From the NCBI GenBank assembly GCA_048939465.1, contig JBHLPL010000001.1, positions 23,562 through 87,561 on the forward strand: a DNA stretch of 64,000 nt. The letters run 5' to 3'. The notes beneath the pieces were generated by a model. It worked only from the letters and a program-made list of their open reading frames with translations. It had not been told where the DNA came from and ran no database searches. The translations under genes and the position numbers were made by a program. The stretch comes from Promethearchaeota archaeon (lineage in GTDB: Archaea; Asgardarchaeota; Odinarchaeia; Odinarchaeales; JBHLKK01). Below, in pieces: positions 38,365-62,927 of this stretch; the stretch's first letter is position 1; each line of letters starts with the position of its first letter.

Positions 38365-38540
38365 GCGCTCTAAGAATGCCTCTCTGTCTAAAATCTTTCC
38401 ATACCTCCCTCTGAATATGTAAAATCACAAAGAAATAAGTATGTGAAAAATATTAAAACCTTATAGTTCAGGATCGATCCTCCTGAATGATACGGCCTTC
38501 TATCCTCCAGATGAAAGATCCTAAGCGAAATAGAAAGTAT

Positions 38541-38783: not shown

Positions 38784-38798
38784 AAATCACCCCAATTA

Positions 38799-39038: not shown

Positions 39039-39181
39039 TTAGTATCTCCAAAGAAGATTAATTAAGAACACTATTAAATACTTTTGCGAATGCCCCCACT
39101 CGGGGCAGTTCAGACTCTTTGCTCTGAATTGATCATCTCCTACAGCCTTGGAATTGCAGATTAGTCGAAAAACCAACAGAG

Positions 39182-39913: not shown

Positions 39914-40074
39914 ATCTTACAAGATTTTGTAGCCTAACTACATAATTGACACTTGTAGTATAAAAGATTTGTGATGCGCTATTAATTCACAGCAAAGAAG
40001 TGTGTAAAACACGGTAACCCGCGGTTTCTTTGTTTAGAGTGAGTTGAAGGTACGATTAAATCTCCTTTGAGTAA

Positions 40075-40623: not shown

Positions 40624-40633
40624 GCCTCTCTTA

Positions 40634-44282: not shown

Positions 44283-44324
44283 ATGGTTTCCCCCATTGGC
44301 AGATTCAGATGTTTTCAGAAGGAA

Positions 44325-44939: not shown

Positions 44940-45100
44940 CTATTACACCTCATTAGTCACTGAAAGGTTGTACAACACACACAATTAAAGCTTACGAAAT
45001 TACATCAAATACGGCTTTTCATCACCTAAGTTTTTTAGGTTTGTTCTTCTAATAGTTAACTAGCCTATCGCAATGTCTACAGAATCCTATTTTCCTGAGG

Positions 45101-46264: not shown

Positions 46265-46278
46265 ACTGGTGATATATA

Positions 46279-47025: not shown

Positions 47026-47145
47026 CCTGTCTTTCGCGGTTATGCACCATCTAAGCGGATTATCTTGCGAAAATCTTAAATCTTTTTATGTGAATATTAT
47101 AACAGATCACGCGTAACTCCGATTCATGGATTAGATTAAGATGAA

Positions 47146-50100: not shown

Positions 50101-51102
50101 TCGAACAGATTTGTTGATGAATACACAATTGCTGTTATATTTGAGAAATCGAATTATGAGGCAAGAACTGCTACATTCAATCTGAAGGTACTCGGGAGAC
50201 CCGCAGATTTTGAAACCGTCAGTTCATCCGTTTCAGCTGCTCACGGTAATGAGGCAACATTCAGCTTCCACATTTCAGATGCTCTAACCGGTCTTCCTCT
50301 TGAAAATGTGTCCATAGTCCTAGACTGTAGCATAAATCCGGCATATTTGTCTTGGATTAATGGTAGTGGATGGTATAACCTAACCATACTCACTGCAAAT
50401 CTTTCGCCCGGTTCATACGATATCAAATTGGTCATTACTCAATCAAACTACACAACTGAAGTCGAAAACGTTCATATGACCGTTGAATATGAAAGAATCC
50501 TTGGGATGCCTTGGCCTTCATTTATTCTAATGATTTCATTCATAGCTGGTGCCGTTGCTGCTACTGGGGGCCTTTTCAGATTCTACACTTGGAAGAAAGT
50601 ACCGCCTCTTGTCAGGAACATCAATAAGAGCCTCAAACACATGCAGCAAGGAGAAGTTGTAAACATAAAAAAGACGTTTCCAGACACAAAGGATAGGGAC
50701 TATGTTCTCGGAGAATTCCTGAACGAAGAGCTGGAGATTCTGGGAATAAGATCTGCAGCCTATGGGGAAGAAGGTTCTCAACTGCTCTCCATAGTTTCGG
50801 CGGCGACTTCATCCGAAACCGAAACAACGGAGTCTGAAACGCAGGTTATCAGGGCAGCGGAATCTGAGACTTTGCCTGAACCGGAAGCAACACAACCTGA
50901 AATGAAGGAATCTGAAGCAATGCCAAAAGAACCAGTCGAAGAACTTGAGGTAACCAAGGAACCTGAAATAGAGAAACCGGAGAAGAAAAAGCCTTACTCG
51001 GCAAAAGCCGGACCTAAGAGGCTAAAGACCAAGAAAACAGAAAAGAGAGAATCGAAATCAAGGTCAGGGAAGTCAAAGGCAAAAAACAAGGTGCAGAAAT
51101 AA
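47146..51102 (+). CDS. large N-glycosylation-sequon-rich surface protein (type I membrane topology, long cytoplasmic tail)
   Basis: signal peptide (LLISLVFTLFLISTLSSITVPPVTASP); >60 N-x-S/T sequons; beta-rich repeats; single TM (ILMISFIAGAVAATGGLF) near aa 1115; ~200-aa acidic then Lys-rich tail. Confidence 0.6.
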   Translation: MVVMQAKRKNLLISLVFTLFLISTLSSITVPPVTASPDTADWWNYNWNQRVPVMINTTGHNTSDIPIKIEGINFTQLLLDLGVGSPHDNNSVRVVEWNVASELNTELPSLFAPAGTYDSSSNAVGDVYWTMNGTTLENTNRTFYVYFDTTDAPGGPKSPPSYSVDPRLPEGIAYVRNAKDDISYESAQQLAAEYGLAQAALFNESVKSGSHYRSGSGWQNNSIDLVPDDYSMIILGSDSLDGGEIPGKLDIDSQFRSNLEAFIAGGGILVIQQITSSDPAQPLTGIQFTSSHGESYKKPLQQHEITTNPNNIRTENLNSLSDGFDKITDSTRYSSIANVTDNGGGPTGHRIRIIQRGAGYVIVEVLGWTSTGDIDKWKQIFENYLNYHINHTKDSLAITVGSQAEYSLINDVTVVVTNHEGLFVPDANVTMVNTTAQANNLSGYNQWALTDSNGQVFFPDVPDNNYNVTATYVTNMGDSTGILNDTFSNFNINYTQTLNLKVNITRLLVNITDVDNMTQYDLIPNWAEHYIVGLFNQSDGSPMANTTTTTLYESGGINWLVGELWWHNSSDNHVIKVLYEHPDYSNTLTLNETSNIQLDVSTSFNVNVSMTRLTVFARGYPTIDPLVNVVLELSNDTQAIANVTADDSGAVVFYWRTQPSQNYSIRAFYFDTLVSFIKFHESWSDWNESVSLPLPNATEKLIDIQLGAEYETDLVLTAFTPDVTYGDNVTVTVYFNVTSPSPRPVTGATARCYLRVGTTDIFMETMTEAGSGYYTLTFNTTHYGGIIGDENIEYRILVIVEKSGYTSPTPIFTDLTIRGLATTLDCSISPETIYWGDLITVDVTYEDLEDATVSYIIGSWDSGVFSDLGNGNYRTSIDTSKSSFWGDYILKITAEKPNYEMKYAEIALRINQIQTLINGSRILVTSPISVYAMEDSLIHFNYTTAGNIGINSTVHQYYWESISSGSGYGDLSYLGNGMYGLDFDTSNRFVDEYTIAVIFEKSNYEARTATFNLKVLGRPADFETVSSSVSAAHGNEATFSFHISDALTGLPLENVSIVLDCSINPAYLSWINGSGWYNLTILTANLSPGSYDIKLVITQSNYTTEVENVHMTVEYERILGMPWPSFILMISFIAGAVAATGGLFRFYTWKKVPPLVRNINKSLKHMQQGEVVNIKKTFPDTKDRDYVLGEFLNEELEILGIRSAAYGEEGSQLLSIVSAATSSETETTESETQVIRAAESETLPEPEATQPEMKESEAMPKEPVEELEVTKEPEIEKPEKKKPYSAKAGPKRLKTKKTEKRESKSRSGKSKAKNKVQK

Positions 51103-51175
51103 GGGACGCCTAAGGTGCCCCCTGAATCAATTTAAACCTCGGAGCGAACCCCCTCATTCCTATTTTCCTGTTTAC

Positions 51176-51922
51176 TTATGAGTTTTTACTTGCCTTGCCT
51201 CCTAGCCCGGGAAAGTAGTACTTTTCTCCTCTTGAATAGCTAGGATCCATTCTGGTAACCTTGGCTTTTTTTAATGCCTCTAATGCTCTTTTGACTCTGG
51301 TCTCGTTCCACCCGGTTTTCACCATGATTTCCTCAGGAGTCGTCCAGCCTTTCTCGCTTGCAATGTTCAATATCTCATTCTGATCATTTCCCAGCTCCAC
51401 AGAAATGAATTGAACAACCTTCACGTCTGACTTCAACTTCATGATTCCTGGTATCATATCTTCTTCTTCCATTTTCCTTATGGCCTTCATAACATCCTCT
51501 ACTGATATCTTTCCCTTGATCATTCCTGTGTTGACCAATAAAACAGCTTCTGGAATTGTCATAATTCCACCTGTTTCTTGCCTTCTCATCAGGGCTCTCT
51601 GATAAAGAAGCAAACCCAGTTTCTCATGATCAACTTTAGTTCTGAAAAATCCCTTCCTCACCACATCCTCTTCTCTCACAATCTGGGTAATAATAGCGCT
51701 TTTGGGAATACCGAACTTCTTTCTAATCTTTTCAACTTCCGAGCGGAACTCGGGATTTATGTCGAGCAGGATTCCATACTTCTTGACTATCTCTACCAGC
51801 TTTTCCCTCGTACGCTTGGCCATTTCAAGCTCGCTTGCCATATTCTGAAGTCTCAACTCAACGCCTTTTTCTTCCAAGGCTCGTTTTGCTCTCATCTCCT
51901 TCTCAATTTCGTAAAGACCCAA
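51176..51922 (-). CDS. Vps22-like ESCRT-II subunit (EAP30 domain)
   Basis: tandem winged-helix EAP30-like pattern: GGIMTIPEAVLLVNTGM...ISVEDVMKAIRKMEE...ILNIASEKGWTTPEEIMVKTGWNETRVKRALEALKKAKVTRMDPSYSRGEKYYFP. Confidence 0.55.
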   Translation of the reverse strand: MGLYEIEKEMRAKRALEEKGVELRLQNMASELEMAKRTREKLVEIVKKYGILLDINPEFRSEVEKIRKKFGIPKSAIITQIVREEDVVRKGFFRTKVDHEKLGLLLYQRALMRRQETGGIMTIPEAVLLVNTGMIKGKISVEDVMKAIRKMEEEDMIPGIMKLKSDVKVVQFISVELGNDQNEILNIASEKGWTTPEEIMVKTGWNETRVKRALEALKKAKVTRMDPSYSRGEKYYFPGLGGKASKNS

Positions 51923-52729
51923 TCAAACGCCCCCCTCGGACACTTCCTTCAGCTTAGCTTCAAAGTCTTTAAGCCATCTATCCGCTTGGAACCCAAGCCT
52001 TTCGGCCTCCTCTTCACTGACAGTCTCGCTTGGTTTTCGAGACTTAAGCCTGTCGCGCCATTCTTCAATCTCCTTGATAACCCAGTACTTCGCATTGAAT
52101 CCAGGAAATCTCTTCATAATACTCAGAAGCTCGTCTAGTCGTGGAACAAGCATATCAACTCTTGCTACGTCCTTCAGTCTTGTAAGATCCATCACAGTAA
52201 TCAGATTCGTTGTGATGTCGAGCGTTTTAGAAGCGACTGTTGCAGGAGAAGCTGTCAAAATCTCTAGAAGAGCGCCTGTCTCACCCTCTGCAAGTTTTAG
52301 TTTATTGATCGCCAAAGGAAACTCCCTTACTATTCCTTCATCTTCCAAGAACTTGGCAACGTCGATATTCAGTTCTTCCAATCTGCCTTTAGCCTTGAAT
52401 GCGCCTGTCATTAGCGCTCGGACTTGACGCTTGTACATTGCTGGCTCTATTCTGGCTTCCTTGAAACTCTCGATTATGGATTCCAGTGTTGCGATGCATG
52501 CATAGAGTTCTGCCTGTTTGTCAAGAACGTATTTTCTCTGGGAAGGACTGAGCCTCTGAAGTGCTTCAGACTCCCCCCCTCGAACCGACTCGCTTAGTGT
52601 CGATTTGTATTCCGACGCAGTTGAGCTGTTTTCAAGGGGCTCTTTTGGGGCTTCTTCTTTTTTCTTTTCCTTTCTTTTCTTTTCTGCCTCGGATGTTTCA
52701 CGCTTTCTGGTTACTTCCATCCCGTTCAC
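51923..52729 (-). CDS. Vps28-like ESCRT-I subunit
   Basis: AELYACIATLESIIESFKEARIEPAMYKRQVRALMTGAFKA ~ human VPS28 [42 protein letters not shown]; C-terminal ITVMDLTRL ~ ITVMDKLRL four-helix-bundle region. Confidence 0.6.
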   Translation of the reverse strand: MNGMEVTRKRETSEAEKKRKEKKKEEAPKEPLENSSTASEYKSTLSESVRGGESEALQRLSPSQRKYVLDKQAELYACIATLESIIESFKEARIEPAMYKRQVRALMTGAFKAKGRLEELNIDVAKFLEDEGIVREFPLAINKLKLAEGETGALLEILTASPATVASKTLDITTNLITVMDLTRLKDVARVDMLVPRLDELLSIMKRFPGFNAKYWVIKEIEEWRDRLKSRKPSETVSEEEAERLGFQADRWLKDFEAKLKEVSEGGV

Positions 52730-52750
52730 CAGCGAGTGAGAAAAAGAATA

Positions 52751-53548
52751 TTACTTCTTCAGTTCCTCAAGCTTCTTGGTAACCAAATACAAGTCTTTCT
52801 TATAACGTTTATAGAGCTTACCATACTCTACGTCGCTGATTTCGCCCGATTCGTACTTCATCTCGAGGTTTTGCAGGAGGTCCTCAGTTGCGATCTTTTC
52901 ACCCTCAAGGTCCAATATCCTCTCTTCTTTTGGGTCGCCAAGTTTGGGGGCCTCATGTTGGCCTGAAAGCGAAATGCTTCGAGCGTCCATCGCTCCGCGT
53001 ATTCTGGCCAGTTCCTCGTCCTTTTTCTGCATAACATCTCTCAATCTTAACGTTTCTCTCTCAAGGTTCAGAACCTTTGATTGGAGTTGTCTAACGCCTT
53101 CCGAAACCGCGGCTGTAGGTTCCAGAGCAGTTGTGGCTGTTGCGGGGGCAGAAACATATATGGGTCTGGGCGGCTTACGTGCAAAGAGACCTTTCAGTGT
53201 ATTGACAACCTGATGGATGTGATATTCTGGACGCCATTCGGAGAGTATTTTCAGGCTAACTTCTCCGGATTGCCTATTGATCTGGGGGTGATCTGTCGGC
53301 GTAATCATTTTCACACTAGGCGCTGACCTTGGAAAGTCATCAGGTAATGCTATCTCAACTTCGAATCTCCTCTTCGCGTGTTGTCCTCTACCCGGTATGG
53401 AACCTCTCCAAAGCCTCAGGTTTCCTCTGACTGGAGTAAATTCCTGCGCTCGTCTGTACATGAGTTGGGCTTCTTTAGCAACAATCAATTCAGCATCTTC
53501 AGACAAGTGATTGCCTCCCTTTTGGGTTTTTTCAAGAATAATTATCAA
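52751..53548 (-). CDS. UEV-domain protein (Tsg101/Vps23-like ESCRT-I subunit; catalytically inactive E2 fold plus coiled-coil stalk)
   Basis: UBC-fold region FPRSAPSVKMITPTDHPQINRQSGEVSLKILSEWRP with HP(N) motif but the E2 catalytic Cys replaced by Ser (EVSLKIL vs RICLGIL in the true E2 at 37924..38364); C-terminal coiled coil. Confidence 0.55.
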   Translation of the reverse strand: MIIILEKTQKGGNHLSEDAELIVAKEAQLMYRRAQEFTPVRGNLRLWRGSIPGRGQHAKRRFEVEIALPDDFPRSAPSVKMITPTDHPQINRQSGEVSLKILSEWRPEYHIHQVVNTLKGLFARKPPRPIYVSAPATATTALEPTAAVSEGVRQLQSKVLNLERETLRLRDVMQKKDEELARIRGAMDARSISLSGQHEAPKLGDPKEERILDLEGEKIATEDLLQNLEMKYESGEISDVEYGKLYKRYKKDLYLVTKKLEELKK

Positions 53549-53602
53549 GAACAGACATAAAAACTCTTGCCATATTGTGCTTCTCAGAAGGAAAAGGAAT
53601 GA

Positions 53603-54946
53603 TTATTTCAGAAACTTCTTTTCAAACGAATTGACTACTTCTTCAAGGTTTGGTCTACCAATCTCTTGGAGTTCGTACCTGACCCTTACAGTCGGTTTGT
53701 CAATTCTGATAATCCTGGTTAAATCTATTGGCGTTCCTATTACAACAACATCACAGTCGGCCGCATTGATCGTGTCCTCAAGATCTTTTATTTGCTCTTC
53801 GCCGTAGCCTACAGCAGGCAGCACTTTACCTATGTGTGGGTATTTCTCAAAAATCCTTTTGATAGATCCAGTGGAATAAGGACGGGGGTCAATAACTTCT
53901 GCTTCAAGTTCTCGAGCCATGATCATGCCCGCGCCGTAAGCCATACCGCCGTGTGTTACGCTCGGACCGTCTTCGATGACCAAAACCCGCCTTCCTTTTA
54001 TCGACTGATCTTTATCTATGGACTTCTTCATAACCGCCCTAATTATCGTTGCCTTTGGATTCACGTGTTCTATATTATTCCTCACATATTCTACGTTTTT
54101 TTGGGCCGCAGTATCTACCTTATTGATTATTACCACGTCTGCCATCCTGAGATTTGCCTCGCCAGGATGATAAGTAATCTCATGGCCTGGTCTGTGAGGA
54201 TCTGTTATCACGATATGTAAGTCGGGTTTGATAAATGGCAAGTCATTATTGCCTCCATCCCAAATAATTACGTCTGCCTCTGCCTCTGCCTCTCTCAGAA
54301 TCCTTTCATAATCTACGCCGGAATAAACTACAATTCCTTGTTCTATGTGTGGGGCATAATCTTCCCTTTCCTCAATTGTGCAGTCATATTTATCCAGATC
54401 TTCGAAAGTCGCAAATCTCTGACTTATTTGGTTTATTAAGTCTCCATAAGGCATTGGGTGCCTTATGACAACAGTGCGATATCCCTTACTCCGCAATATC
54501 CTACTCACTCTCCGCGTTGTTGGTGATTTTCCGGCTCCGGTTCTGACTGCGCACACAGAAATAACCGGTTTTCTGGATGTCAGTGCTGTGCTTTTGAGAC
54601 CCATCAGTCTGAAATCTGGGCCACATGAAAGCACGATAGAAGCTTTATGCATTACTTCCACATGAGAAAGATCACTGTATGCCAGAACTACTTGGTCTAC
54701 ATCATGTTCTTTTATTAGATTTGGCAAATCCTCCTCGGGATATATAGGAATCCCATTGGGGTAATTCGGACCAGCTAACTTGGGATGATACAATCTGTTG
54801 GCAATATTGGGTATTTGAGACGCTGTAAATGCGATGACGCGATATCTTTTGTCGTTCCTGAAGTATACGTTGAAATTGTGGAAGTCCCTTCCCGCAGCAC
54901 CCATTATGACTACTTTTATCTGTTTCACCAACCTCACCAACTTCAA
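53603..54946 (-). CDS. P-loop NTPase of the COG2403 / cyclic 2,3-diphosphoglycerate-synthetase-like family
   Basis: 447 aa; Walker A VCAVRTGAGKSPTT; family assignment from recollection, not verified. Confidence 0.4.
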   Translation of the reverse strand: MKLVRLVKQIKVVIMGAAGRDFHNFNVYFRNDKRYRVIAFTASQIPNIANRLYHPKLAGPNYPNGIPIYPEEDLPNLIKEHDVDQVVLAYSDLSHVEVMHKASIVLSCGPDFRLMGLKSTALTSRKPVISVCAVRTGAGKSPTTRRVSRILRSKGYRTVVIRHPMPYGDLINQISQRFATFEDLDKYDCTIEEREDYAPHIEQGIVVYSGVDYERILREAEAEADVIIWDGGNNDLPFIKPDLHIVITDPHRPGHEITYHPGEANLRMADVVIINKVDTAAQKNVEYVRNNIEHVNPKATIIRAVMKKSIDKDQSIKGRRVLVIEDGPSVTHGGMAYGAGMIMARELEAEVIDPRPYSTGSIKRIFEKYPHIGKVLPAVGYGEEQIKDLEDTINAADCDVVVIGTPIDLTRIIRIDKPTVRVRYELQEIGRPNLEEVVNSFEKKFLK

Positions 54947-55266
54947 CCCTATTTGATAGGAGACGGTCTACCAAAGATTGGGGATGAAAATTGCCGAGTA
55001 TTTATGTCCTTCTTCTTTATATATTTTTGACACTTGAAATTCCGGGCATTTCTAATTCCGAAATAGGAGAATCAGATCCTTGATCGGTAATCAGTGTATA
55101 TGGATTCGATCTATCAAGATTCCAAAAAAAGGAAAATCTTCTTGACGCTCTTCCCTATCGGCGGGTAGAATTGGCGCAGTCTGCGCACCCAGAAAAGAAG
55201 CAAACTACTCCCCCCTTCAGGAAGGAGTCTCCTTGAGGTGGTTTAGATGGATTCTCCAATTAATGA

Positions 55267-55791
55267 CTACTCACTCTGGGTTTTCAACTTCGTAAAAAGT
55301 TGCTTTAACTCCATGTTTAGTGCTCTTCGGACATTTACTGGACTGATAGGTATTGCGGGTCTGGGCGGCTCAGCTGCTCCTTGTGCGGCCACAGGAGTAG
55401 CTCCGCCTGTAGCTGCGGGTGCAACTCCAGGAGCAGTAGCGGGGGTAGGTGACGGTGAAGCTGAGGCAGACGTAGAGGCTGGAGCCGTTGGCGATACTGC
55501 TGAAGGTCTTATTGCGGTCTCTGCAGGTTTCCCAGCGGCCCCTTGGGAAACGGTACTTGCAGTGACTGGAAGAGAGACTCGAGACTCAATCGAGTTAATC
55601 CTACTCTCTATTACGCCTATTTTGATTTCGAGGTTCTTGGACAGACTATTCAGGTTTTGCTCCAGCATATCAATGGCGTTTATAACGATTTCCATAACTC
55701 TGCTTAGTATCGTACTAATTTCCTGGATACGCTTTGGTTGTGACAGCGTTTCATCAATAAGCCTTACGAAGTCTTCTCCCATATCGAACAC
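55267..55791 (-). CDS. coiled-coil protein with Ala/Pro/Thr-rich low-complexity segment
   Basis: N-terminal heptad pattern (LEQNLNSLSKNLEIKIGVIESRINSIESRV); APAST-rich middle; competing plus-strand ORF 55247..55810 covers the same biased DNA. Confidence 0.35.
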   Translation of the reverse strand: MFDMGEDFVRLIDETLSQPKRIQEISTILSRVMEIVINAIDMLEQNLNSLSKNLEIKIGVIESRINSIESRVSLPVTASTVSQGAAGKPAETAIRPSAVSPTAPASTSASASPSPTPATAPGVAPAATGGATPVAAQGAAEPPRPAIPISPVNVRRALNMELKQLFTKLKTQSE

Positions 55792-55806
55792 CGTCTATGA
55801 TTATCA

Positions 55807-56649
55807 CTAAACTTTGCGGTTTATAATCTTTTCTTTTGTATGACTAATAATCATCGCTGTCTTTTTCCCTTCTTCTTTCCTCCTGTCCGAGGCAACCTCG
55901 TGGTTAGTGTTTTGGGTCTCTTTTGCTTCCATCTTCTCCCCCGAGATCTCTTCCTTTCTTTTCTCCTTGGTTATGAATGAACCCCAATCTATTCTGAGCA
56001 TCAGATAGACCAATAGAATCGTTCCCAAAATTCCTATCACGGTACCTGCTGTGCCCCCGCCTCCAAATAATGCTTCAACCAGCGGCCGGAAAAACCTCCC
56101 TCCGTAAGCCAAGATTGCGCATAGAACTATCTTCCCCAAAATGGCTGCGACAACCGCTTTGACAATGCTATACTTCATTACGCCTACAGGGATAAGAAGC
56201 ATATCATCAGGTAAAGGCGTAGCTGCGAACAAGAATATTGCTGCAAATCCATACTTCTCAATTAACTTCTTCATGGATTCTATTCTCTTACCGTATTTTT
56301 CTTCGATTAGCTCCCTTCCTCCCCGCCCTATCGCATAGGCGCTCAATTCTCCAATAGCTGCGCCAAATCCGCAGACTAATGCAAGTATCAGCGGCTCAAT
56401 AAACTCCTGGGTTCCCAGAAGGATTACAGCCAGAGCGTAGGGAACGGGTAGGAAAACTGTGAAGTTGCCAAAGGTGGATATTAGGAAGGCCCCGAAATAG
56501 ACAGACAGTGGACTTCCCACAGCAAAGTTGAACATCCCAATCGTTAAGCTGTCAAAGAAATTGGCAATAGCTTCTATTGAAAACAGAACCACCAATGCTA
56601 TTCCGGTGATTACAAAAGCTATTATGAAAATAATGTCTCGACGTTCCAT
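55807..56649 (-). CDS. DedA/TVP38 family membrane protein
   Basis: DedA core: AYAIGRGGRELIEEKYGKRIESMKKLIEKYGFAAIFLFAATPLPDDMLLIPVGVMKYS (G-R-x-x-G ... re-entrant P-containing helices); ~6 TM. Confidence 0.55.
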   Translation of the reverse strand: MERRDIIFIIAFVITGIALVVLFSIEAIANFFDSLTIGMFNFAVGSPLSVYFGAFLISTFGNFTVFLPVPYALAVILLGTQEFIEPLILALVCGFGAAIGELSAYAIGRGGRELIEEKYGKRIESMKKLIEKYGFAAIFLFAATPLPDDMLLIPVGVMKYSIVKAVVAAILGKIVLCAILAYGGRFFRPLVEALFGGGGTAGTVIGILGTILLVYLMLRIDWGSFITKEKRKEEISGEKMEAKETQNTNHEVASDRRKEEGKKTAMIISHTKEKIINRKV

Positions 56650-56719
56650 GCTTCATCCGCTCGGTCTGCATCGCGATATGTATAACGTGATGTATAGTAA
56701 TATAAGCCAATAAGCATAT

Positions 56720-57685
56720 ATGACTATTTCCACTCCGAATTCTCCGTTAACCTTGATGGAGGATATACTGCTGGCAGAGCTTAAGGCCCTTGTAGAAATA
56801 ATTCGGTTGCCCAATTGCCTCATGGGTAGCTTGACCACGTCGATTTCCGTATTGACAGTAGACAGCATCCTAGACCTGACAGCCGGAGTAAGCCTGTCCG
56901 CTGTTAGCCTCATCTGGTTGCTTGTTATTGCCTATATTACTTACGTCTTTGCAGCGGCTGCAGGGAACGTTGTAAATGACGTATTCGATATCGAAGTAGA
57001 CAGGATAAATCGGCCAAATCGGGTGCTTCCAAGAAGAGCACTAACTGTGCGTCAAGCTAAGATATACACAATTCTGCTTTGGCTGGCCTGTTCATTCTGC
57101 GCCTTCTTAACAAGCATCCCGGCTGGAATTATTGCTACAACCTTTTCACTAGTTGGTTTCGGTTATGCATCAAGGGCCAAACTGCTAGGAATATGGGGGA
57201 ACTTCACCGTTTCGTTTTCTTTTGCCTTTGGTTTGATTTACGGCTCTCTAATAACTTATTATGCCGCTTTGGGCACGCTGGGTCTCCCCCTCCTAATATG
57301 GCTTTACTTCTTCACGGCGTTCTTTATCCTTCAGGGCAGAGAAGTGATTAAGGGGATGGAGGATGTTGAGGGTGACCGAGTGAGGGGTGTGAAAACCGTA
57401 GCTTTGGTTTACGGCTTTAGGAGGGCATCTATCGTGGCTGCTCTTTTCAATATCATAAGCATGATTTGCTTCACAGCCGCGTGGTTTCTGAGTTGGTCCG
57501 GCTGGTCGTCCTTACCAAATATCTGGTACACCGTTTTTCTATTACCCGGCGATGGTATTGTGCTGGCTTCTACAATCTTGATCTTAATGAAATCATCTTC
57601 ATCTTCAGCTCAGAATAGAGCCAGTTTCTATTCCAAAATAGGAAGTCTCCTAGGTCTGTTGGCATTCTTGGTAGGAGCACTATAA
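56720..57685 (+). CDS. UbiA-family prenyltransferase (DGGGP-synthase-like)
   Basis: Asp-rich motif NDVFDIEVDRINRPNRVLP (NDxxDxxxD); 8-9 TM helices; second Asp-rich region EDVEGDRVRGVKT. Confidence 0.8.
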   Translation: MTISTPNSPLTLMEDILLAELKALVEIIRLPNCLMGSLTTSISVLTVDSILDLTAGVSLSAVSLIWLLVIAYITYVFAAAAGNVVNDVFDIEVDRINRPNRVLPRRALTVRQAKIYTILLWLACSFCAFLTSIPAGIIATTFSLVGFGYASRAKLLGIWGNFTVSFSFAFGLIYGSLITYYAALGTLGLPLLIWLYFFTAFFILQGREVIKGMEDVEGDRVRGVKTVALVYGFRRASIVAALFNIISMICFTAAWFLSWSGWSSLPNIWYTVFLLPGDGIVLASTILILMKSSSSSAQNRASFYSKIGSLLGLLAFLVGAL

Positions 57686-57902
57686 ACGGTTTTCTGAGAG
57701 TCTGCGCATCTCGAATTGCGTAGTTCTCAACATAAAGCTGATTTCATTAAAGATTCAACATTAAAACCTACTGCGTCTCGTAATGTTTTTATACTATTAT
57801 GACAATAATTTATGTAGCTAAACTACAAAATTGGGAACCTCTCGATGATGTGTCTGCTGAGTGACCTAGAAACTCTACACTAATCATTGTGAGGGATATG
57901 CA

Positions 57903-58760
57903 ATGATTCATTCGGTTTATGTAATCCGAAGGACAGGAGAATGCCTATTCTCCAGAGTATATGATAAGAACGGAATCGACGAAGCCCTAATATCCGGCTT
58001 CTTAAGCGCTCTACAATCTTTCATAAATGAAATCAGTGGAGATTATGTAAGGACTCTGAAAACTGGAAATGTGAAATTTGTCTATAATTTACTGGATGAT
58101 CTGATATTCGTATTCTGCGTCGATCTAGAAGAAGATGAGGAAAAACTGAGAAAGAAGATAAATCTCACTCAGAGTGTCTTCGTAAGGAGATTTGGCAGCA
58201 TAATAGAAGGCTGGAATGGTCAAACCAGCATCTTCGAATCCTTCAATGTAACAGTAGATGACATTGTTACAGATCTCGTAAAGGTATCCGTAATTGGATT
58301 TGGGGGTGTCGGTAAGACGACTCTCCTCAAGCTTATTCTAAGGGAAGAAGTTCCCGTACAACACATTCCAACAATAGCGGTTGATATCAAAGATCTTAAC
58401 GGTGTAAAATCCCCGGCAAAGGTGGTCATGTGGGATTTTGCTGGACAACAGCGTTTTGAATCCCTTTGGGATGTGATGATTAAAGGCTCAGACGTTATTC
58501 TAATTGTTACGGATTCTTCCATGTTAAATATAGTAAAGACCAAGAAAAAAATCATCTCCCTCATTAAAGAGCATAATCCCGGCGCGAGAGTTATTGCTAT
58601 TGCAAACAAACAAGACCTTCCGAATTCGATAAAGCCAAGAGCAATTAGTGACCTTCTAGGCGTACCGGTTTATGGAATTGTCGGCATAGACCCTTCAAAT
58701 CGAGGGCAATTGCTTGAGATAATAGGCGATACTGTTAATAGCTGGCTAGAATATTCATAA
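57903..58760 (+). CDS. roadblock/longin-like domain fused to small GTPase
   Basis: N-terminal ~100 aa MIHSVYVIRRTGECLFSRVY...ISGFLSALQSFINEISGDY (roadblock/LC7-longin-like); GTPase G1 GFGGVGKTTL, G3 WDFAGQQRF, G4 ANKQDL; ~60% identical to GTPase core of 39182..39913. Confidence 0.7.
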   Translation: MIHSVYVIRRTGECLFSRVYDKNGIDEALISGFLSALQSFINEISGDYVRTLKTGNVKFVYNLLDDLIFVFCVDLEEDEEKLRKKINLTQSVFVRRFGSIIEGWNGQTSIFESFNVTVDDIVTDLVKVSVIGFGGVGKTTLLKLILREEVPVQHIPTIAVDIKDLNGVKSPAKVVMWDFAGQQRFESLWDVMIKGSDVILIVTDSSMLNIVKTKKKIISLIKEHNPGARVIAIANKQDLPNSIKPRAISDLLGVPVYGIVGIDPSNRGQLLEIIGDTVNSWLEYS

Positions 58761-58806
58761 ACTATCCACTAGGCCGTTTGTTCATTCGCCGCTGGAGTAG
58801 GGCTTA

Positions 58807-59559
58807 ATGTTTCTTGTGGGGGCCGTAGGAGACATTCATGGACCGAAGTATCTATACCTGTTTAAGAATGGACTAAGCTCACTAAAAGGAAATGTCTTAG
58901 ACGATATTAATTGTCTATTTTTTGCCGGCGATATCATATCAAAAGGCCATACTGAAGATCTCCAAGCGGTAATAAGGACCATCGATGACTTTGAAGTTAG
59001 ATGTCCTTTGATCTCCTGCTTCGGTAACGAGGAGTATGAAGAAACGCATAACATAATACGAGAGAAATTCGGCAGTAGGGTTACATTCCTGGATGATGAG
59101 TCTTTTGTCTTGAACCTGAAAGACGATAGGACACTAGGGATTGTGGGATCTAAAGGGAGTCTAGATCGACCCACATGGTGGCAAAGTAGGAATATTCCAA
59201 ACATCCTTCAGATATATTCTCAGAGAATCAGTGTAATAGGTGGTCTCCTTCAGAAATTGAAGACTGATTTCAAGATCTTACTCCTACATTATGCTCCGAC
59301 TTTCAAAACATTAGGTGGCGAAGGAAGAACTTTTTACCAGCAATTAGGAAGCAAAAAGCTTGAGACTATAATCAGCAGAAGCAAACCGGACGTAGTTATC
59401 CATGCCCATGCCCACAATGGACGCAGATTTGCCCTTTTGGGTGAGATTCCTATATACAACGTTTCTCTTCCTCTTACCCGGACAATCACAGTCATAAAAC
59501 TACCGGGATTTGCTATCTCCGATTCCTCGGAAGATAATAAGGAAGAATATACATCATGA
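58807..59559 (+). CDS. calcineurin-like metallophosphoesterase
   Basis: motifs GDIHG, FFAGDIISKGH, GNEEYE, HAHAHN. Confidence 0.6.
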   Translation: MFLVGAVGDIHGPKYLYLFKNGLSSLKGNVLDDINCLFFAGDIISKGHTEDLQAVIRTIDDFEVRCPLISCFGNEEYEETHNIIREKFGSRVTFLDDESFVLNLKDDRTLGIVGSKGSLDRPTWWQSRNIPNILQIYSQRISVIGGLLQKLKTDFKILLLHYAPTFKTLGGEGRTFYQQLGSKKLETIISRSKPDVVIHAHAHNGRRFALLGEIPIYNVSLPLTRTITVIKLPGFAISDSSEDNKEEYTS

Positions 59560-59838
59560 ATACTTCAGTGTTATTTATGTTTATATGACTTAAAAAACAT
59601 CTAACTCCTTGTTGTGCAAAACGACTTTATCCCTTTCACCGTCGCTTAGTCCGGCGAGACACGATTCTGATAAGCTAATCTGATTGCTGTTGCCGATTGG
59701 ATAAGGTCTTGTAGATCGCTTCAATCTGATGAAAATGTGAGGGTCAAATCCTTTAATCTGAAAATGCTGCCCTTGAGAGCGACCAGAATAGCCCGACTCC
59801 TCGTGAGGTCAAACAACCCGTTTGCTTGAGGGAGTTTC

Positions 59839-61644
59839 ATGAAGACTGTGAGAATCTGCAATTTTTGTGGAAGCAGAGAAGCAACTCATTATTGTGAGGA
59901 GTGTGGAGCCTCATTCTGCAGCAGGTGCGCAAGAAAGAAGAAGATCCAAATTAGCATATGTGTAAATTGCGGTGCATCTGTTGACAAACTCAGAAAACAG
60001 AGTAGTATTACGGCCTGCAATGACTGTAATCCGTCAAGCACAAAATCTGCGATAAAATACATAACCCTATGCCCTGATTGCTCTTCAAAGACGGTAGTAC
60101 GCATCAAGAAAAAAAACCATGATTTGTTGATCAAACTCAAAAGTGCAGTTTCAAGTCTTATATCCGGCTACTATATCCTAAAACAATTTTTGGCTGAAGT
60201 GAATACCGTACGGCGCAGGATAGTAGCAATGAGGTATTATGGATTTAGACAGTATCCTGAACTCGAAAAGACATTGATTGCTGTCTATTCTGAAGTTCAT
60301 ACGTTGGGTCAGAACTTTGTCAATACAGTATTCAAAACATTACAGGGAGTAGATTCTGAATTGCTTGTGGTTCTAAGGAAGAGACCATGGGACTCCAAAG
60401 ATTTTCCCTCGGTAGAATCTCTGACAGAACAACTTAGAAAAGATGGACAGATGACTCAGAAAGACTTGATGAACAGACTAACTGATTTAAGACAGCTATT
60501 TATCGACCTTCTTCCTCTAATTGGGTCTCTGGAGTACTTCAGACAAGTGTACGATAGCATAGGGGAGCATTTAATCCTTGATAAGTATGAGAGAATCATC
60601 TGTGCGTTTAGCAAGGTGTCTCTGTCATCGAACTCATCCAAGCGGAGCAAGAATAACGGAACCTTGGTTCTTACAAACCGCAGAATAGTTCTTCATCAAC
60701 AAGCAAAGGGAAAAGGGGCTTTCAATGTAATTGGGGCAAGATTGACTGATTTAAACTCCTATCATGTCGATGAAACAGATGGAAGAATAACTCTGGAAAC
60801 AACGAATGGTAGAACGGAGTTCCTTGTTTCACAGAATGCTGCGAGTTTATTCAAGAGATCTCTAGAGGTAACCGACCGATACGACGGGAATTTAGTAGAT
60901 TTGGATCGCTTAAATCGTCTCATTAATATCCAGTGGGTTTCTTCGGAGTTATATCGTCTGAATAAGAAACTGCAGCTAGAGGTTCTCAATGTGCTGGGGG
61001 AGAAACCCAGACTTCTCGATTCAGCAGTTGTTGCTACATCTGTCTTTAGAGAGTACTCAAATGACACTCCTGAGCCACCGCAGGAGGGGCCAAATGTCTC
61101 GTTTGGGATCAAGAAAGACGATCCCAAAGAGGCCATGAATTCGGAATCTTATAAGGGAACCAAGCCGGCAGGCGTTATTCGTCGCATTGTGAATTTATTT
61201 AAGAATAATAGAAATCGTGAATTATCCGATCTAGTTCTGGAAATTGGCAGAAAGAACAGAACCAATACGGGCGGGATGGTTCCTTTAGCTGAAGTGTACC
61301 TATCGATAAAAGAACTCAGACCTAATCGGAACATCGATGTTGAGGAAGTTGAAAAAGCAATTGAAACACTTAAAGAAAAAGGACTTATAGTTGATTTTAG
61401 GGAACATAACTCTGGAATAAAAGTTGTTGAGTTCTTTCCATTAGAGTTCAGTAGTGATAAGAATACTGTTATAGATTTGGCAGCAGAAAGAGGTCACCTG
61501 ACGCTTGAGGATGTCATACGCAATACGGGATGGTTAGGGGTCAGAGCTGCAAGAGCACTTAAAGGGTTAGAGAAAATTGGGATAGCCAAGCTTGACCCTA
61601 CATATTCTAGGGGAAAGCGTTGGTATTTCCCATACCTGAAATGA
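59839..61644 (+). CDS. Vps36-like ESCRT-II subunit (N-terminal zinc ribbons, GLUE/PH-like domain, C-terminal EAP30-like winged helices)
   Basis: CNFCGSREATHYCEECGASFCSRCA / CVNCGAS / CNDCNPS / CPDCSSK zinc-ribbon pairs; GRAM/GLUE-like GTLVLTNRRIVLHQQAKGKGAFNVIG...ITLETTNGRTEFLV; C-terminus TLEDVIRNTGWLGVRAARALKGLEKIGIAKLDPTYSRGKRWYFP paralogous to 51176..51922 C-terminus. Confidence 0.55.
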   Translation: MKTVRICNFCGSREATHYCEECGASFCSRCARKKKIQISICVNCGASVDKLRKQSSITACNDCNPSSTKSAIKYITLCPDCSSKTVVRIKKKNHDLLIKLKSAVSSLISGYYILKQFLAEVNTVRRRIVAMRYYGFRQYPELEKTLIAVYSEVHTLGQNFVNTVFKTLQGVDSELLVVLRKRPWDSKDFPSVESLTEQLRKDGQMTQKDLMNRLTDLRQLFIDLLPLIGSLEYFRQVYDSIGEHLILDKYERIICAFSKVSLSSNSSKRSKNNGTLVLTNRRIVLHQQAKGKGAFNVIGARLTDLNSYHVDETDGRITLETTNGRTEFLVSQNAASLFKRSLEVTDRYDGNLVDLDRLNRLINIQWVSSELYRLNKKLQLEVLNVLGEKPRLLDSAVVATSVFREYSNDTPEPPQEGPNVSFGIKKDDPKEAMNSESYKGTKPAGVIRRIVNLFKNNRNRELSDLVLEIGRKNRTNTGGMVPLAEVYLSIKELRPNRNIDVEEVEKAIETLKEKGLIVDFREHNSGIKVVEFFPLEFSSDKNTVIDLAAERGHLTLEDVIRNTGWLGVRAARALKGLEKIGIAKLDPTYSRGKRWYFPYLK

Positions 61645-61689
61645 TGTTGAAGAAATCTCTTGAGAAAGCCCATCAGCCTGGCTTTTGGT

Positions 61690-62238
61690 TCATCGCCTTC
61701 CCTCGCGGGAACGGCGGTAAGATCCCCTACTGTAGGGTCTTCGTCTTGGTCTAAATCGGTCCTGTTCATATTGTTTTTCGGAGAGATTGTTCTCTGTGTT
61801 TACATCGCCAAACTCGGCATCCTCAAATGACTCAATCGTACCATATCTACCGATATTTAATCGCAAGGATCCCTTGAATACTGTACAGTATCCGTTGTTG
61901 ATTTTGTATATCTGATCTATTTCCACCTTGTCAATGTCCTGATTCCAAAGAGTTAAGTACACGCTACCAGTCTCGTCACCCACCAGAGCTTCGGTGACTC
62001 TTAGTTGTTCACCTGTCTTTCTTGAGAATACCTCTCTTGCCTCATTCTTAGAGGCTACCTTAACTTTTACGTTTACACCTCTAGAGTTCGGATTTAGCTC
62101 TTCTACGACTACAAATTCCTCAGATTCGCTCATTTTAGTTACATCTCTATTCATATACTTTGTTCGTTTAACAAGGATAGCAAAACAAGTCCCTAGAGCA
62201 AGTTTTACATCCTTAAGCGGTATCGGGTTAGATTCCAA
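61690..62238 (-). CDS. OB-fold single-strand nucleic-acid-binding protein (SSB/RPA-like) with Arg-rich tail
   Basis: VNVKVKVASKNEAREVFSRKTGEQLRVTEALVGDETGSVYLTLWNQ...YKINNGYCTVFKGSLRLNIG OB-fold pattern; C-terminal RRRPYSRGSYRRSREGRR. Confidence 0.5.
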   Translation of the reverse strand: MESNPIPLKDVKLALGTCFAILVKRTKYMNRDVTKMSESEEFVVVEELNPNSRGVNVKVKVASKNEAREVFSRKTGEQLRVTEALVGDETGSVYLTLWNQDIDKVEIDQIYKINNGYCTVFKGSLRLNIGRYGTIESFEDAEFGDVNTENNLSEKQYEQDRFRPRRRPYSRGSYRRSREGRR

Positions 62239-62279
62239 GATATTTAAACCTTACTATATGGAAGAAATAGCTTTCTCGA

Positions 62280-62927
62280 TTACTCTTTTTCTTTTTCCTC
62301 TTCTGGTATGTCTTCTTTAAGCCCTTTCTTAATATCTTCAAGTTCCTTCCGTATTTTGTCCTTCTTCTTTTCAGCGACAGCCTTCTCTTTTTCGGTGGGA
62401 ATCTCAGGTAACTCTTCTTCTATGGCCACTTCCTCTTGAAGTTTTGCTAACTCCCTCTCTACGTCAATGTCTTCGCCTTCATCCAAAGCTGTGGCACTTA
62501 ACATCTCACTGGTTTTCTCTATCTCATCAACCAGTTGTTCAGTTTTTAGCATAACTTCAGTAGCTTTCTCACTTGACATAAGTCTTCTTGCTTCTTCAAG
62601 TTGTTCAAGACCAACTTCAAGGGCACGTCCCATGTCGGCAGTATCTCTAGCAGTCTCGATCATATCAATAACATCTTCTAGGCTGCCTACCTGTCTATGA
62701 TAACGATTCATCCATGTGGTATATCTTTTCCATTTTCGAAGATGTGTCCTTGCCCCATCTGTGTTTCCTTGCCTTACAAGCTCTCTTGCTCTCTGCTTGC
62801 TTTCTCCTGCCTTTCTTTCAAATCCACGAACTCTGAGTGTCATCTTGTTGATTGTTGCACGCATTTCTGTAACTGCTTCGTCTCTGCTTTCCTTTTTCTT
62901 GGGGAATAGCTTCCTCAGAAAACCCAA
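62280..62927 (-). CDS. ESCRT-III (Snf7/CHMP family; Vps20/32/60-like)
   Basis: 215 aa; N-terminal MGFLRKLFPKKK basic start, basic helices (ARELVRQGNTDGARTHLRKWKRY), acidic C-terminal half ending in EEL..EKEKE; Snf7 organisation. Confidence 0.6.
   Translation of the reverse strand: MGFLRKLFPKKKESRDEAVTEMRATINKMTLRVRGFERKAGESKQRARELVRQGNTDGARTHLRKWKRYTTWMNRYHRQVGSLEDVIDMIETARDTADMGRALEVGLEQLEEARRLMSSEKATEVMLKTEQLVDEIEKTSEMLSATALDEGEDIDVERELAKLQEEVAIEEELPEIPTEKEKAVAEKKKDKIRKELEDIKKGLKEDIPEEEKEKE

Follow-up and report, generated by a model that had tools for sequence, protein, structure and literature searches.

Longin–Arf-Like GTPase Gene at a Conserved Position Beside Ubiquitin and ESCRT Genes in Hodarchaeota and Odinarchaeia

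The Locus and Its Product

The window analyzed here is a 64,000-nt stretch of a Promethearchaeota archaeon contig (JBHLPL010000001.1). It carries an ORF with an ATG start that encodes a longin domain followed by a small GTPase domain (Table 1); a Shine-Dalgarno-like GAGG element lies 9 nt upstream of the ATG. The product is 100% identical to NCBI entry MFX1485566.1, named [quoted passage not shown], and it contains all of the peptide strings quoted for it in a first-pass annotation of this DNA. The AlphaFold2 (AF2) model of the full-length protein (pLDDT 81.5, pTM 0.62) has only moderate inter-domain confidence. The sequence shows no lipid-anchor or lipidation motif, no transmembrane segment and no amphipathic terminus, and direct membrane anchoring is for this reason not proposed. 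Judged by its motifs, the protein is a two-domain, catalytically complete predicted molecular switch.

The gene is part of a ubiquitin–ESCRT supercluster, in the order E1, E2, Ub, RING, RING–GTPase, 182-aa protein, 351-aa protein, HerA-like, Snf7, Vps4, Vps25, 1318-aa protein, EAP30, Vps28, UEV/E2, cobW-like, 174-aa protein, VTT/DedA, UbiA (DGGGP-synthase-like), longin–GTPase, metallophosphoesterase, Zn/GLUE/EAP30 (Vps36-like), OB-fold SSB, and Snf7. The SSB gene in this block is unrelated to trafficking. Two further small GTPases are encoded elsewhere in the window.

TABLE 1. Features of the locus (nucleotide positions in the window; aa, residues of the respective product).
Feature	Position	Strand	Basis
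Longin–Arf-like GTPase, complete CDS (285 aa plus stop)	57903..58760	+	ORF list of the window
Longin domain (aa 1–123)	57903..58271	+	AF2 topology, Pfam
Longin β1 (aa 2–9), β2 (14–19), α1 (27–41), β3 (50–54)			DSSP of AF2 model
Longin β4 (aa 57–64), β5 (67–74), α2 (79–101), α3 (114–122)			DSSP of AF2 model
Arf-like small GTPase domain (aa 125–285)	58275..58757	+	Pfam Arf/Roc/Ras, PDB profile, Foldseek
G1/P-loop GFGGVGKT (aa 132–139)	58296..58319	+	Sequence
G3/switch II DFAGQ (aa 178–182), catalytic Gln182	58434..58448	+	Sequence
G4 NKQD (aa 235–238), guanine specificity	58605..58616	+	Sequence
RING–GTPase fusion (NCBI MFX1485551.1), probably 214 aa from GTG 39826	39182..39826	-	BLASTP, Pfam
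Stand-alone RING finger gene	38799..39038	-	Pfam zf-RING_2
Ubiquitin–ESCRT supercluster with both GTPases	36932..62927	.	Pfam and NCBIfam scans

The Longin Domain

The N-terminal module had been described as a roadblock/LC7-longin-like unit of about 100 aa. Its longin character was upheld and its roadblock character was not, and the domain boundaries give a length of about 123 aa. DSSP assignments for AF2 models of the full-length protein and of the N-domain alone (pLDDT 83.7, pTM 0.79) yield the order β-β-α-β-β-β-α-α. There is no N-terminal helix, and five strands are followed by two C-terminal helices, the order of longin domains, in which these helices pack on one face of the sheet; structure prediction, which the earlier reading had suggested as a check, thus agrees with the longin sandwich. 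The roadblock order α-β-β-α-β-β-β(-α) does not fit a head that opens with a β-strand at residue 2, and at the level of predicted fold topology a roadblock/LC7 head is refuted. The HMM search suggested at the same time gave a marginal longin match, to the first longin domain of FUZ/MON1/HPS1 (Fuz_longin_1, PF19036, 27.2 bits against a cut-off of 26.1), the best longin match in Pfam. Clat_adaptor_s remained under threshold (17.9 bits, E = 0.003), and Robl_LC7 gave no Pfam match at E ≤ 0.1.

The longin family profile was closest to the AP-2/3/4 σ subunits and δ-COP (E = 2e-4 to 3e-3; AP-2 σ, 2e-4). Homolog searching from the longin-only alignment gave just one hit and was uninformative; an exhaustive search of representatives was used instead. 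In structural comparison, solved longin domains scored 3–5 Z units above roadblock domains, and the SNARE, TRAPP and adaptin longins outscored SRX.

The GTPase Domain

The C-terminal domain has the G1, G3 and G4 motifs, the switch-I threonine and the six-stranded, Rossmann-like fold of a Ras-like (TRAFAC) small GTPase. All G motifs are invariant or nearly so in a 62-sequence family alignment. This holds for G132, V136, G137, K138 and T139 of the P-loop (with G135 at about 90%) and for switch-I Thr157. W177 precedes DFAGQ and an Arf-type W189 follows it; W177, D178, G181, Q182 and W189 are invariant columns, as are N235, Q237 and D238, with K236 at ≥90%. In the longin head of the same homologs G12, F33 and Y61 are invariant, and conservation reaches 90% or more at W104, G106, F111 and F114, which belong to the α2–α3 loop and the linker. 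This pattern speaks for a longin and a G domain that form one fixed unit.

Profile searches point to the Arf family. The domain scored 64.4 bits with TIGR00231 small_GTP (cut-off 42.5) and 64.9 bits with Pfam Arf (PF00025, cut-off 22.3, E = 8.5e-18); Roc and Ras were also matched. All of the top 60 PDB matches of the family profile were Arf or Arl (Arf1, 1.3e-23), and no solved structure of a family member was found. The top Foldseek matches were GerdArfR1 (8oum), HodArfR1 (8ouk), Arl8, Arl2 and Arl1, with about 22–25% identity to Arf structures. PTI in switch I, LW, VxDS after β4 and NKQD are Arf-like; GFGGVGKT and WDFAGQxRF are more Ras/Rab-like, the Arf signatures being GLDxAGKT and WDxGGQ. 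By these comparisons we class the GTPase half as Arf-like. Arf proteins have an N-terminal amphipathic, usually myristoylated helix, which inserts into the membrane and is coupled to the interswitch toggle. No such helix is found in the AF2 model, where longin α3 runs almost directly into β1 (aa 125–131) of the G domain.

Membership in the Rag/MglAB or SRβ/longin systems, to which the first-pass annotation likened the pairing, was not supported. Gtr1_RagA (PF04670) stayed below threshold (20.9 bits against 22, E = 2.6e-4), and the modeled chain ends with G-domain helix α5 (aa 264–284) and has no C-terminal roadblock domain. Rag membership was rejected because of this score and the wrong domain order; by the tests run the GTPase is not a Rag, nor is it MglA-like by PDB profile and Foldseek. 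The protein is a single chain with no hydrophobic N-terminal segment or transmembrane anchor, and SRPRB (PF09439) was not matched at E ≤ 0.1, contrary to what an SRβ/SRX system would show; other longins outscored SRX, as noted above. Some homologs do match PF09439.

Homologs and Gene Neighborhood

We found 785 homologs of the longin–GTPase at E ≤ 1e-3. The best 120 come from Hod-, Odin-, Hel-, Loki-, Thor-, Jord- and Freya-archaeal lineages and, except for one 242-aa partial sequence, are 282–325 aa long with 93–100% coverage. The gene belongs to an orthogroup, here group A, confined to Hodarchaeota and Odinarchaeia. A paralogous group B has products of 308–325 aa, and exactly one group B member was present in every GTDB genome with group A, four in all: Hod DZ1B.307 (loci L008 and L013), Hod H2M.176 (L007, L014), Odin J65 (L011, L015) and Odin HHBFW-2 (L009, L012). 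The two groups are never adjacent and their conserved neighborhoods differ. Both share invariant longin α1 and β3–β4 motifs; in helix α1 the invariant residues are L29–Q38, F40, E43 and S45.

The order of the supercluster is common to Hodarchaeota loci L001 and L007 and to the covered part of the short contig L008, and a corresponding arrangement occurs in Odinarchaeia L003, L009, L010 and L011. Group A adjoins VTT/UbiA wherever that flank is present. It lies next to OB-SSB and Snf7 in the window and in L001, L007, L003, L009, L010 and L011; the short contigs L002 and L008 stop before these genes. ESCRT genes stand beside group A in every locus long enough (the window and five of seven fetched loci), and the position is kept between Hodarchaeota and Odinarchaeia at 52–57% protein identity. 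In Odin L011 the cluster runs on to RING–Ub–E2–E1, 7–9 kb away. In Odinarchaeia the genes flanking group A are on the opposite strand, so that the neighborhood is not an operon. No ESCRT genes were found near group B or the distant Loki, Jord and Hel homologs at the loci checked; the claim of ESCRT linkage is for this reason limited to group A.

The RING–GTPase Paralog and Other RING Fusions

The earlier proposal that one GTPase cassette carries alternative heads, longin in 57903..58760(+) and RING in 39182..39913(-), was borne out. Pfam zf-RING_2 matched aa 34–77 of the latter product (E = 1.6e-5), confirming the RING in its N-terminus. Its G domain (aa 88–236) aligned by BLASTP with aa 125–273 of the longin–GTPase at 88/149 identities (59%; 81% positives, no gaps, E = 9e-67), far beyond chance and in agreement with the roughly 60% first estimated. 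The TTG-started 243-aa ORF is probably over-extended, since all five clusters of RING–GTPase homologs are 213–214 aa long, as is expected for a start at the GTG (Table 1). The named clusters are Hodarchaeota or "Promethearchaeota" MAGs, and judging by these the fusion is restricted to Hodarchaeota.

The RING–GTPase gene is the first of an operon RING–GTPase > RING > Ub > E2 > E1 and has the same position in L037 and L038, that is, in three genomes with the window. Its RING is 67% identical to the stand-alone RING over 54 aa (E = 5e-25), and the latter gene is probably either the source of the RING head or its tandem duplicate. The G domain is 57% identical to Hodarchaeota group A, 49.5% to Odinarchaeia group A and 43% to group B. 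Neighbor-joining (NJ) bootstrapping with Kimura distances resolved the origin weakly (Hod-A with RING, 57/100; Odin-A with RING, 0/100), and in the point-estimate NJ tree the RING clade fell outside group A. The RING–GTPase was probably derived from the group A orthogroup: most likely a G-domain copy of that lineage would have been fused to a duplicate of the neighboring RING gene, replacing the longin head.

Independently of this fusion, two homologs (P0259 and P0257) are longin–GTPase–RING triple fusions with the RING at the C-terminus. They were found with the loose pattern CxxC…CxxC…H…CxxC; a classical C3HC4/RING-H2 regular expression had no match. By sequence comparison the GTPase cassette has acquired RING fingers on two or more independent occasions, in two orientations.

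Comparison with Known Systems

The architecture itself, in which a single ORF of an Asgard genome encodes a longin followed by an Arf/Rag-like GTPase, is known and has been reported since 2016. In Lokiarchaeum, five longin domains were described as fusions with Arf-like GTPases (Klinger et al., 2016, as cited in PMC4917890), and such fusions were later traced across Asgard genomes and filed under the "Rag family" (Liu et al., 2021, 10.1101/2020.10.19.343400). In strain MK-D1, 26 of 74 GTPases were reported with roadblock or longin domains, and AF2 models of these roadblock/longin–GTPases predicted Rag-like dimers (Tran et al., 2024, PMC10933270). The same study found GTPase genes generally outside operons with their regulators, and other Asgard proteins (a small GTPase, a roadblock protein, TRAPPC3) diffuse in HeLa cells as GFP fusions. 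Asgard genomes encode 70–110 small GTPases each (PMC10933270; PMC4917890). The published fusions share with this gene the domain order, a length of about 285–300 aa and the phylum; the gene differs in belonging to a Hodarchaeota/Odinarchaeia-only orthogroup beside ESCRT genes. In this Asgard longin–GTPase literature (PMC4917890; 10.1101/2020.10.19.343400; PMC10933270) we found no description of group A beside ESCRT genes, of a Hodarchaeota RING–GTPase heading a RING–Ub–E2–E1 operon, or of longin–GTPase–RING triple fusions. Neither LokiRagO (8yl2) nor LokiRagM (9m28), both solved structures, is a close relative.

Eukaryotic Arf/Arl and Asgard ArfR (8oum, 8ouk) provide the best match to the G domain, sharing PTI, WDxxGQ, LW, VxDS and NKQD; the present protein differs in having a longin domain in place of the amphipathic helix and in its more Ras/Rab-like P-loop and WDFAGQxRF. 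In Rag/Gtr proteins (RagA–RagC, Gtr1–Gtr2), too, a small GTPase is covalently linked to a longin/roadblock-superfamily domain, which serves for dimerization; they also have no lipid anchor and occur as two paralogs, but here the domain order is reversed and the domain is a longin. In the SRP receptor, SRα (with SRX and an extra NG domain) and membrane-anchored SRβ are separate chains, whereas the present product is, by sequence, one soluble chain. AP and COPI coats, whose σ and ζ/δ subunits have longin domains, are recruited by Arf1-GTP, and AP-2/3/4 σ and δ-COP are the closest in sequence to the longin head, if by weak matches; the large adaptin and coatomer subunits are absent from the neighborhood of this gene. 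Mon1–Ccz1, TRAPP, FLCN–FNIP, GATOR1 and MglA–MglB also pair a longin or roadblock platform with a small GTPase. These platforms, however, work in trans, each a dimer formed by separate proteins (MglB being a roadblock), and no catalytic residues can be mapped in the present protein.

Proposed Function

The analysis shows what the two domains are, that the GTPase motifs are intact, that the protein is widely conserved across Asgard lineages and where its gene lies. The interpretation to which we lean, as probable but well short of secure, is that of an Asgard longin–Arf-like switch with a longin platform, acting in ubiquitin/ESCRT-linked membrane remodeling, with the RING–GTPase as a derivative. 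By analogy with the longin/roadblock platforms of other small GTPases, the head would be a built-in platform at the site where eukaryotic Arf carries its membrane-inserting helix; it may mediate homo- or heterodimerization, dock a G domain, or both, and nucleotide state would control complex assembly through it. The face bearing α1 is the one on which longin and roadblock domains generally dimerize and dock GTPases (described by Levine, 2013). A role of group A in ubiquitin/ESCRT-linked remodeling is suggested by the ESCRT-III, -II and -I genes and the lipid-related VTT/DedA and UbiA genes next to it, and by the repeated joining of the cassette to RING fingers.

A deflationary reading, which we consider doubtful, assigns the gene to no specific pathway: it would be interchangeable with dozens of other Asgard small GTPases, and its ESCRT position would be a historical accident of synteny. 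The large number of small GTPases per genome, two more of them in this window, and the general placement of GTPase genes outside operons of their regulators fit such a generic paralog. The conserved order may indeed be inherited synteny, because there is no operon in Odinarchaeia and the block includes the SSB gene. Against this stand the position kept between Hodarchaeota and Odinarchaeia in every locus long enough, the independent joining to RING in two orientations, and the RING derivative, which three genomes have as the first gene of the ubiquitin operon. RagA/RagC and Gtr1/Gtr2 pair through C-terminal roadblock domains, and groups A and B could likewise form an obligate heterodimer through their longins, a combined two-state sensor and not a membrane-traffic switch. 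One B in all four genomes with A (suggestive only), the α1 and β3–β4 motifs invariant in both groups, the Rag-like dimers modeled for MK-D1 (PMC10933270) and the filing of such fusions under Rag (10.1101/2020.10.19.343400) speak for the pairing. We nevertheless judge it unlikely, given the subthreshold Gtr1_RagA score beside 64.9 bits for Arf, the N-terminal longin in place of a C-terminal roadblock, and two groups that are never neighbors and keep different neighborhoods.

The longin domain (SRX) of SRα binds SRβ-GTP. A comparable contact within one chain, with the longin bound to its own switch regions as an SRX–SRβ-like autoinhibited switch or a cis GAP/GEF, and its face freed in one nucleotide state only, would make the protein a self-regulating monomer. 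This is quite improbable: SNARE, TRAPP and adaptin longins score above SRX, PF09439 and a transmembrane anchor are missing, and α3 stands so close to β1 that the α1 face may miss the switches of the same chain. A roadblock/MglB-type head, as a GAP platform for an MglA-like GTPase, is scarcely credible in view of the longin topology, the Z scores, the missing Robl_LC7 match and the Arf-like G domain.

The debate on the origin of eukaryotic membrane trafficking turns largely on the small GTPases and longin/roadblock domains of Asgard archaea, yet to our knowledge hardly any of them has a known pathway. What this gene adds is no new architecture but a conserved address beside ESCRT and ubiquitin genes, common to two lineages that are distantly related, accompanied by a natural domain swap (RING for longin) and natural triple fusions. 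Together these give a testable hypothesis on the system regulated by one Asgard GTPase family; if the link is inherited synteny only, nothing sets the gene apart from the rest of a large family that has already been catalogued. More speculatively, and with small probability in our estimation, group A and its RING derivative could be unrecognized ubiquitin–ESCRT components, a GTP switch with a built-in longin platform that couples ubiquitylation (RING in cis or trans) to ESCRT remodeling; A and B might in addition form a Rag-like heterodimer. Endosomal sorting of the Arf/Rab-regulated, ubiquitin-dependent kind would then have had a prokaryotic forerunner. Distant members of the family, at 36–41% identity, occur in Loki/Promethearchaeota, including lineages studied in publications.

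The longin–GTPase gene and its GTPase domain

The longin–GTPase is encoded by a clean reading frame with a GAGG element 9 nt upstream of the start codon (see table). The product is identical to NCBI MFX1485566.1, 'ADP-ribosylation factor-like protein [Promethearchaeota archaeon]'. BLASTP aligned its aa 125-273 with aa 88-236 of the RING–GTPase, the paralogue encoded at 39182..39913(-), at 59% identity (88/149; 81% positives, 0 gaps, E=9e-67). The two genes thus share one GTPase cassette, and the similarity of about 60% reported in the first-pass annotation is confirmed. Its interpretation, a roadblock/longin-like head whose pairing with the GTPase recalls Rag/MglAB-type and SRβ/longin systems, was supported only in part: the head is longin, not roadblock, and the GTPase Arf-like, not Rag.

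The full set of nucleotide-binding elements is present. GFGGVGKT (aa 132-139), Thr157, W-DFAGQ with the catalytic Gln (aa 177-182) and NKQD (aa 235-238) are invariant or nearly so in 62 homologues. Judged by these motifs, the Arf-like GTPase is catalytically complete; the longin domain lies directly in front of it. Pfam scores were 64.9 bits for Arf, 63.6 for Roc and 55.0 for Ras; Gtr1_RagA reached 20.9 bits, under its 22-bit threshold, which speaks against the Rag-type assignment. The top 60 matches of the family profile among PDB sequences were all Arf/Arl (Arf1 at 1.3e-23), and Foldseek put GerdArfR1 (8oum), HodArfR1 (8ouk), Arl8, Arl2, Arl1 and Arf at the top. Visual inspection shows Arf-like features in switch I (PTI), the LW tryptophan, NKQD and the VxDS that follows β4, whereas the P-loop and WDFAGQxRF resemble Ras/Rab more than Arf. 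The domain is called Arf-like by profile and fold, without a claim to membership of the eukaryotic Arf clade. Longin α3 (aa 114-122) runs almost directly into GTPase β1 (aa 125-131), so that the longin domain sits where Arf proteins have their amphipathic helix. Profile and structure comparisons with the PDB found no solved structure of this longin–Arf-like family.

The N-terminal domain

In a Pfam scan, aa 5-98 matched Fuz_longin_1, the FUZ/MON1/HPS1 first longin domain (E=5e-6; 27.2 bits, barely exceeding the cut-off of 26.1). The clathrin-adaptor small chain matched more weakly, and Robl_LC7 gave no match. AlphaFold2 models of the full-length protein (62-sequence alignment; pLDDT 81.5, pTM 0.62) and of aa 1-123 alone (pLDDT 83.7, pTM 0.79) both run β-β-α-β-β-β-α-α, as in longin domains; the roadblock arrangement begins with a helix. 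Structure comparison scores (Z units) were 15.6 for the Sec22b longin, 14.8 for TRAPPC4, 13.8 for VAMP7, 13.3 for δ-COP, 12.7 for σ-AP3 and 12.5 for SRX. The sequence profile of the domain also matched AP-2/3/4 σ and δ-COP (E=2e-4 to 3e-3). Model topology, structure scores and profile matches all bear out the predicted α/β/α sandwich expected in the first-pass annotation. Of its 'roadblock/LC7-longin-like' head, the longin half stands: on the models, the domain is a longin. The roadblock/MglB reading was rejected on the lack of an initial helix and of Robl_LC7, and on scores of about 10 for roadblocks (MP1, LAMTOR3, MglB, MK-D1 roadblock) vs 12.5-15.6 for longins.

Distribution and paralogue groups

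A protein search returned 785 homologues at E<=1e-3. The best 120 have 282-325 aa and 93-100% query coverage, except for one 242-aa partial protein; among them, identity is 80-89% in Hodarchaeota, 52-57% in Odinarchaeia and 36-41% in Hel, Loki/Promethearchaeota, Thor, Jord and Freya lineages. The longin–GTPase is thus conserved across Asgard lineages. The architecture is already published and well documented, among others by Liu et al. Dey, Thattai and Baum (PMC4917890), in their summary of Klinger et al. 2016, give 41 longin domains for Lokiarchaeum, five of them joined to Arf-like small GTPases. In MK-D1, Tran et al. (PMC10933270) counted 26 of 74 GTPases with a roadblock or longin domain and modelled dimers of such proteins.

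Two closely related paralogues occur in both Hodarchaeota and Odinarchaeia: group A (285-298 aa, including the protein studied here) and group B (308-325 aa, 44-48% identical). Both groups share an invariant longin helix α1 (L29-Q38, F40, E43, S45) and TGNxKFxY strand; in the α2-α3 loop, W104, G106, F111 and F114 show at least 90% conservation over the whole family. From this conservation we infer that longin and G domain form a fixed unit with a functional α1 face.

Genomic context

The region 36.9-62.9 kb of the window is a ubiquitin–ESCRT supercluster. Its order is E1, E2, Ub, RING, RING–GTPase, two unknown genes, HerA-like ATPase, Snf7, Vps4, Vps25, 1318-aa protein, EAP30, Vps28, UEV/E2, cobW-like 447-aa protein, 174-aa protein, VTT/DedA, UbiA, longin–GTPase, metallophosphoesterase, Zn/GLUE/EAP30 (Vps36-like), OB-fold SSB and Snf7. 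The block cobW-like–174aa–VTT–UbiA–longin-GTPase–OB-SSB–Snf7 has the same order in Hodarchaeota loci L001 and L007; L002 and L008, on shorter contigs, match as far as they reach and stop before OB-SSB/Snf7. It was found in Odinarchaeia wherever flanks were present (L003, L009, L010, L011), running directly into Snf7, Vps4, Vps25, EAP30, Vps28 and UEV/E2, and in L011 further into RING-Ub-E2-E1. Group A thus lies beside ESCRT and ubiquitin genes. Because the flanking genes are on the opposite strand in Odin, we regard this as a conserved neighbourhood rather than a demonstrated operon. The longin–GTPase is not mentioned in Makarova et al. 2024 (PMC10936438) or in the UEV-Vps23 paper (10.1101/2023.07.25.550441).

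Group B has a different location, with GatE and three conserved, functionally uncharacterised membrane proteins as neighbours. This neighbourhood is common to Odin and Hod (L012, L013, L014, L015): the next gene upstream, on the same strand, encodes a ~240-aa membrane protein, and downstream come two proteins of ~480-520 aa, membrane or secreted; none has a Pfam match. In the Loki, Jord and Hel loci, ESCRT genes were not near the more distant homologues.

The RING–GTPase paralogue and domain modularity

As annotated at first pass, a RING finger (zf-RING_2, aa 34-77) precedes the GTPase cassette. Only five database clusters (90% identity) were found, named ones from Hodarchaeota or 'Promethearchaeota' MAGs. 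Since all are 213-214 aa and a GTG is present at 39826, the true gene is probably 39182..39826, not the 243-aa TTG ORF. It heads a co-directional operon (RING-GTPase > RING > Ub > E2 > E1) in L037 and L038 as well as in the window, and its RING shares 67% identity with the stand-alone RING next to it. Its G domain averages 57% identity with group A of Hod, 49.5% with that of Odin and 43% with group B; NJ bootstrapping joined it to Hod-A in 57/100 replicates and never to Odin-A. With moderate confidence, the likeliest origin is local duplication within the supercluster, a group-A-lineage G domain being joined to a duplicate RING that replaced the longin head.

Searched exhaustively, the longin profile matched 2786 representative proteins at E<=1e-3, of which 540 reached E<=1e-10. 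The domain is nearly always N-terminal, and the 150 matches listed span 79-874 aa. Besides longin–GTPase, sampled architectures include longin–GTPase–C-terminal RING (P0259, 465 aa, L036 926..2323; P0257, 455 aa), both from another Asgard MAG, GCA_016840985.1; here cassette and RING finger came together independently. Cassette and RING are thus combined in two independent orientations, which by Rosetta-stone logic supports a functional tie to ubiquitylation. The same longin subtype is fused to a carbon-nitrogen hydrolase domain in P0308 (874 aa) and to a prenyltransferase α-α toroid in P0244 (425 aa; PF00432, E=5e-30). The latter is intriguing because Asgard GTPases are, to our knowledge, without known prenylation machinery.

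Possible role

The longin–GTPase would be a nucleotide-dependent switch, with the longin domain as its putative dimerisation or docking platform, by analogy with longin/roadblock domains that serve GTPases in TRAPP, Mon1–Ccz1, Rag–Ragulator, SR and MglAB. It is quite possible, if short of probable, that this switch operates in ubiquitin/ESCRT-linked membrane remodelling. Group A and group B proteins might instead form a Rag-like heterodimer; group B is present in 4/4 GTDB genomes holding group A. Another candidate is an autoinhibited monomer, closed in cis like SRX–SRβ. The protein could also be a generic paralogue whose ESCRT address is inherited synteny. We regard the ESCRT/ubiquitin address, the replacement of longin by RING and the triple fusions as useful leads; none of them is a discovery of something new in kind.

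Neighbouring genes

Several genes listed below recur in related loci. VTT/DedA and UbiA are lipid-handling genes adjoining ESCRT genes. The 447-aa and 174-aa proteins, kept between UEV/E2 and VTT/DedA in Hodarchaeota and Odinarchaeia (50% and 44-46% identity), could be ESCRT-neighbourhood members that have yet to be characterised. The 601-aa protein resembles a Vps36-like ESCRT-II subunit that carries a zinc-finger head; Hodarchaeota loci conserve it at 59-64% identity, and the Odin clusters lack it. The HerA-like and 1318-aa genes are embedded between ESCRT-III/Vps4/Vps25 and EAP30. Eukaryotic Yip1 proteins are Rab-interacting factors; the Yip1-domain gene adjoins E1 here and in L037 and L038, where the ArsA/Get3 and histone-deacetylase-family order is also repeated, with a profilin gene just beyond.

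Coordinates of the longin–GTPase and other genes of the window
Position	Strand	aa	Description
5090..5755	-	221	Small GTPase, no longin domain; G-domain HMM E=5.7e-17; adjacent to next
5831..6349	-	172	Small GTPase, no longin domain; G-domain HMM E=1.5e-21
33317..34276	+		ArsA/Get3-type ATPase, flanks ubiquitin operon
34716..35951	-		Histone-deacetylase-family protein, flanks ubiquitin operon
36079..36864	+		Yip1-domain membrane protein, N-terminal zinc ribbon
41676..44282	-	868	HerA/DUF87-like ATPase; also in Hod L037
47146..51102	+	1318	CarboxypepD_reg-like domain
53603..54946	-	447	Weak cobW/HypB/LpxK P-loop matches only
55267..55791	-	174	No family match
55807..56649 / 56720..57685	- / +		Divergent pair immediately upstream of longin–GTPase, Hod and Odin: one VTT/DedA membrane protein (weak matches to UptA, polyprenyl-phosphate transporter), the other UbiA prenyltransferase (best NCBIfam matches DGGGP synthases)
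57903..58760	+	285	Longin–GTPase, ATG start
59839..61644	+	601	N-terminal B-box/zinc-ribbon; Vps36 GLUE-like/bacterial-PH, aa 246-321; C-terminal EAP30
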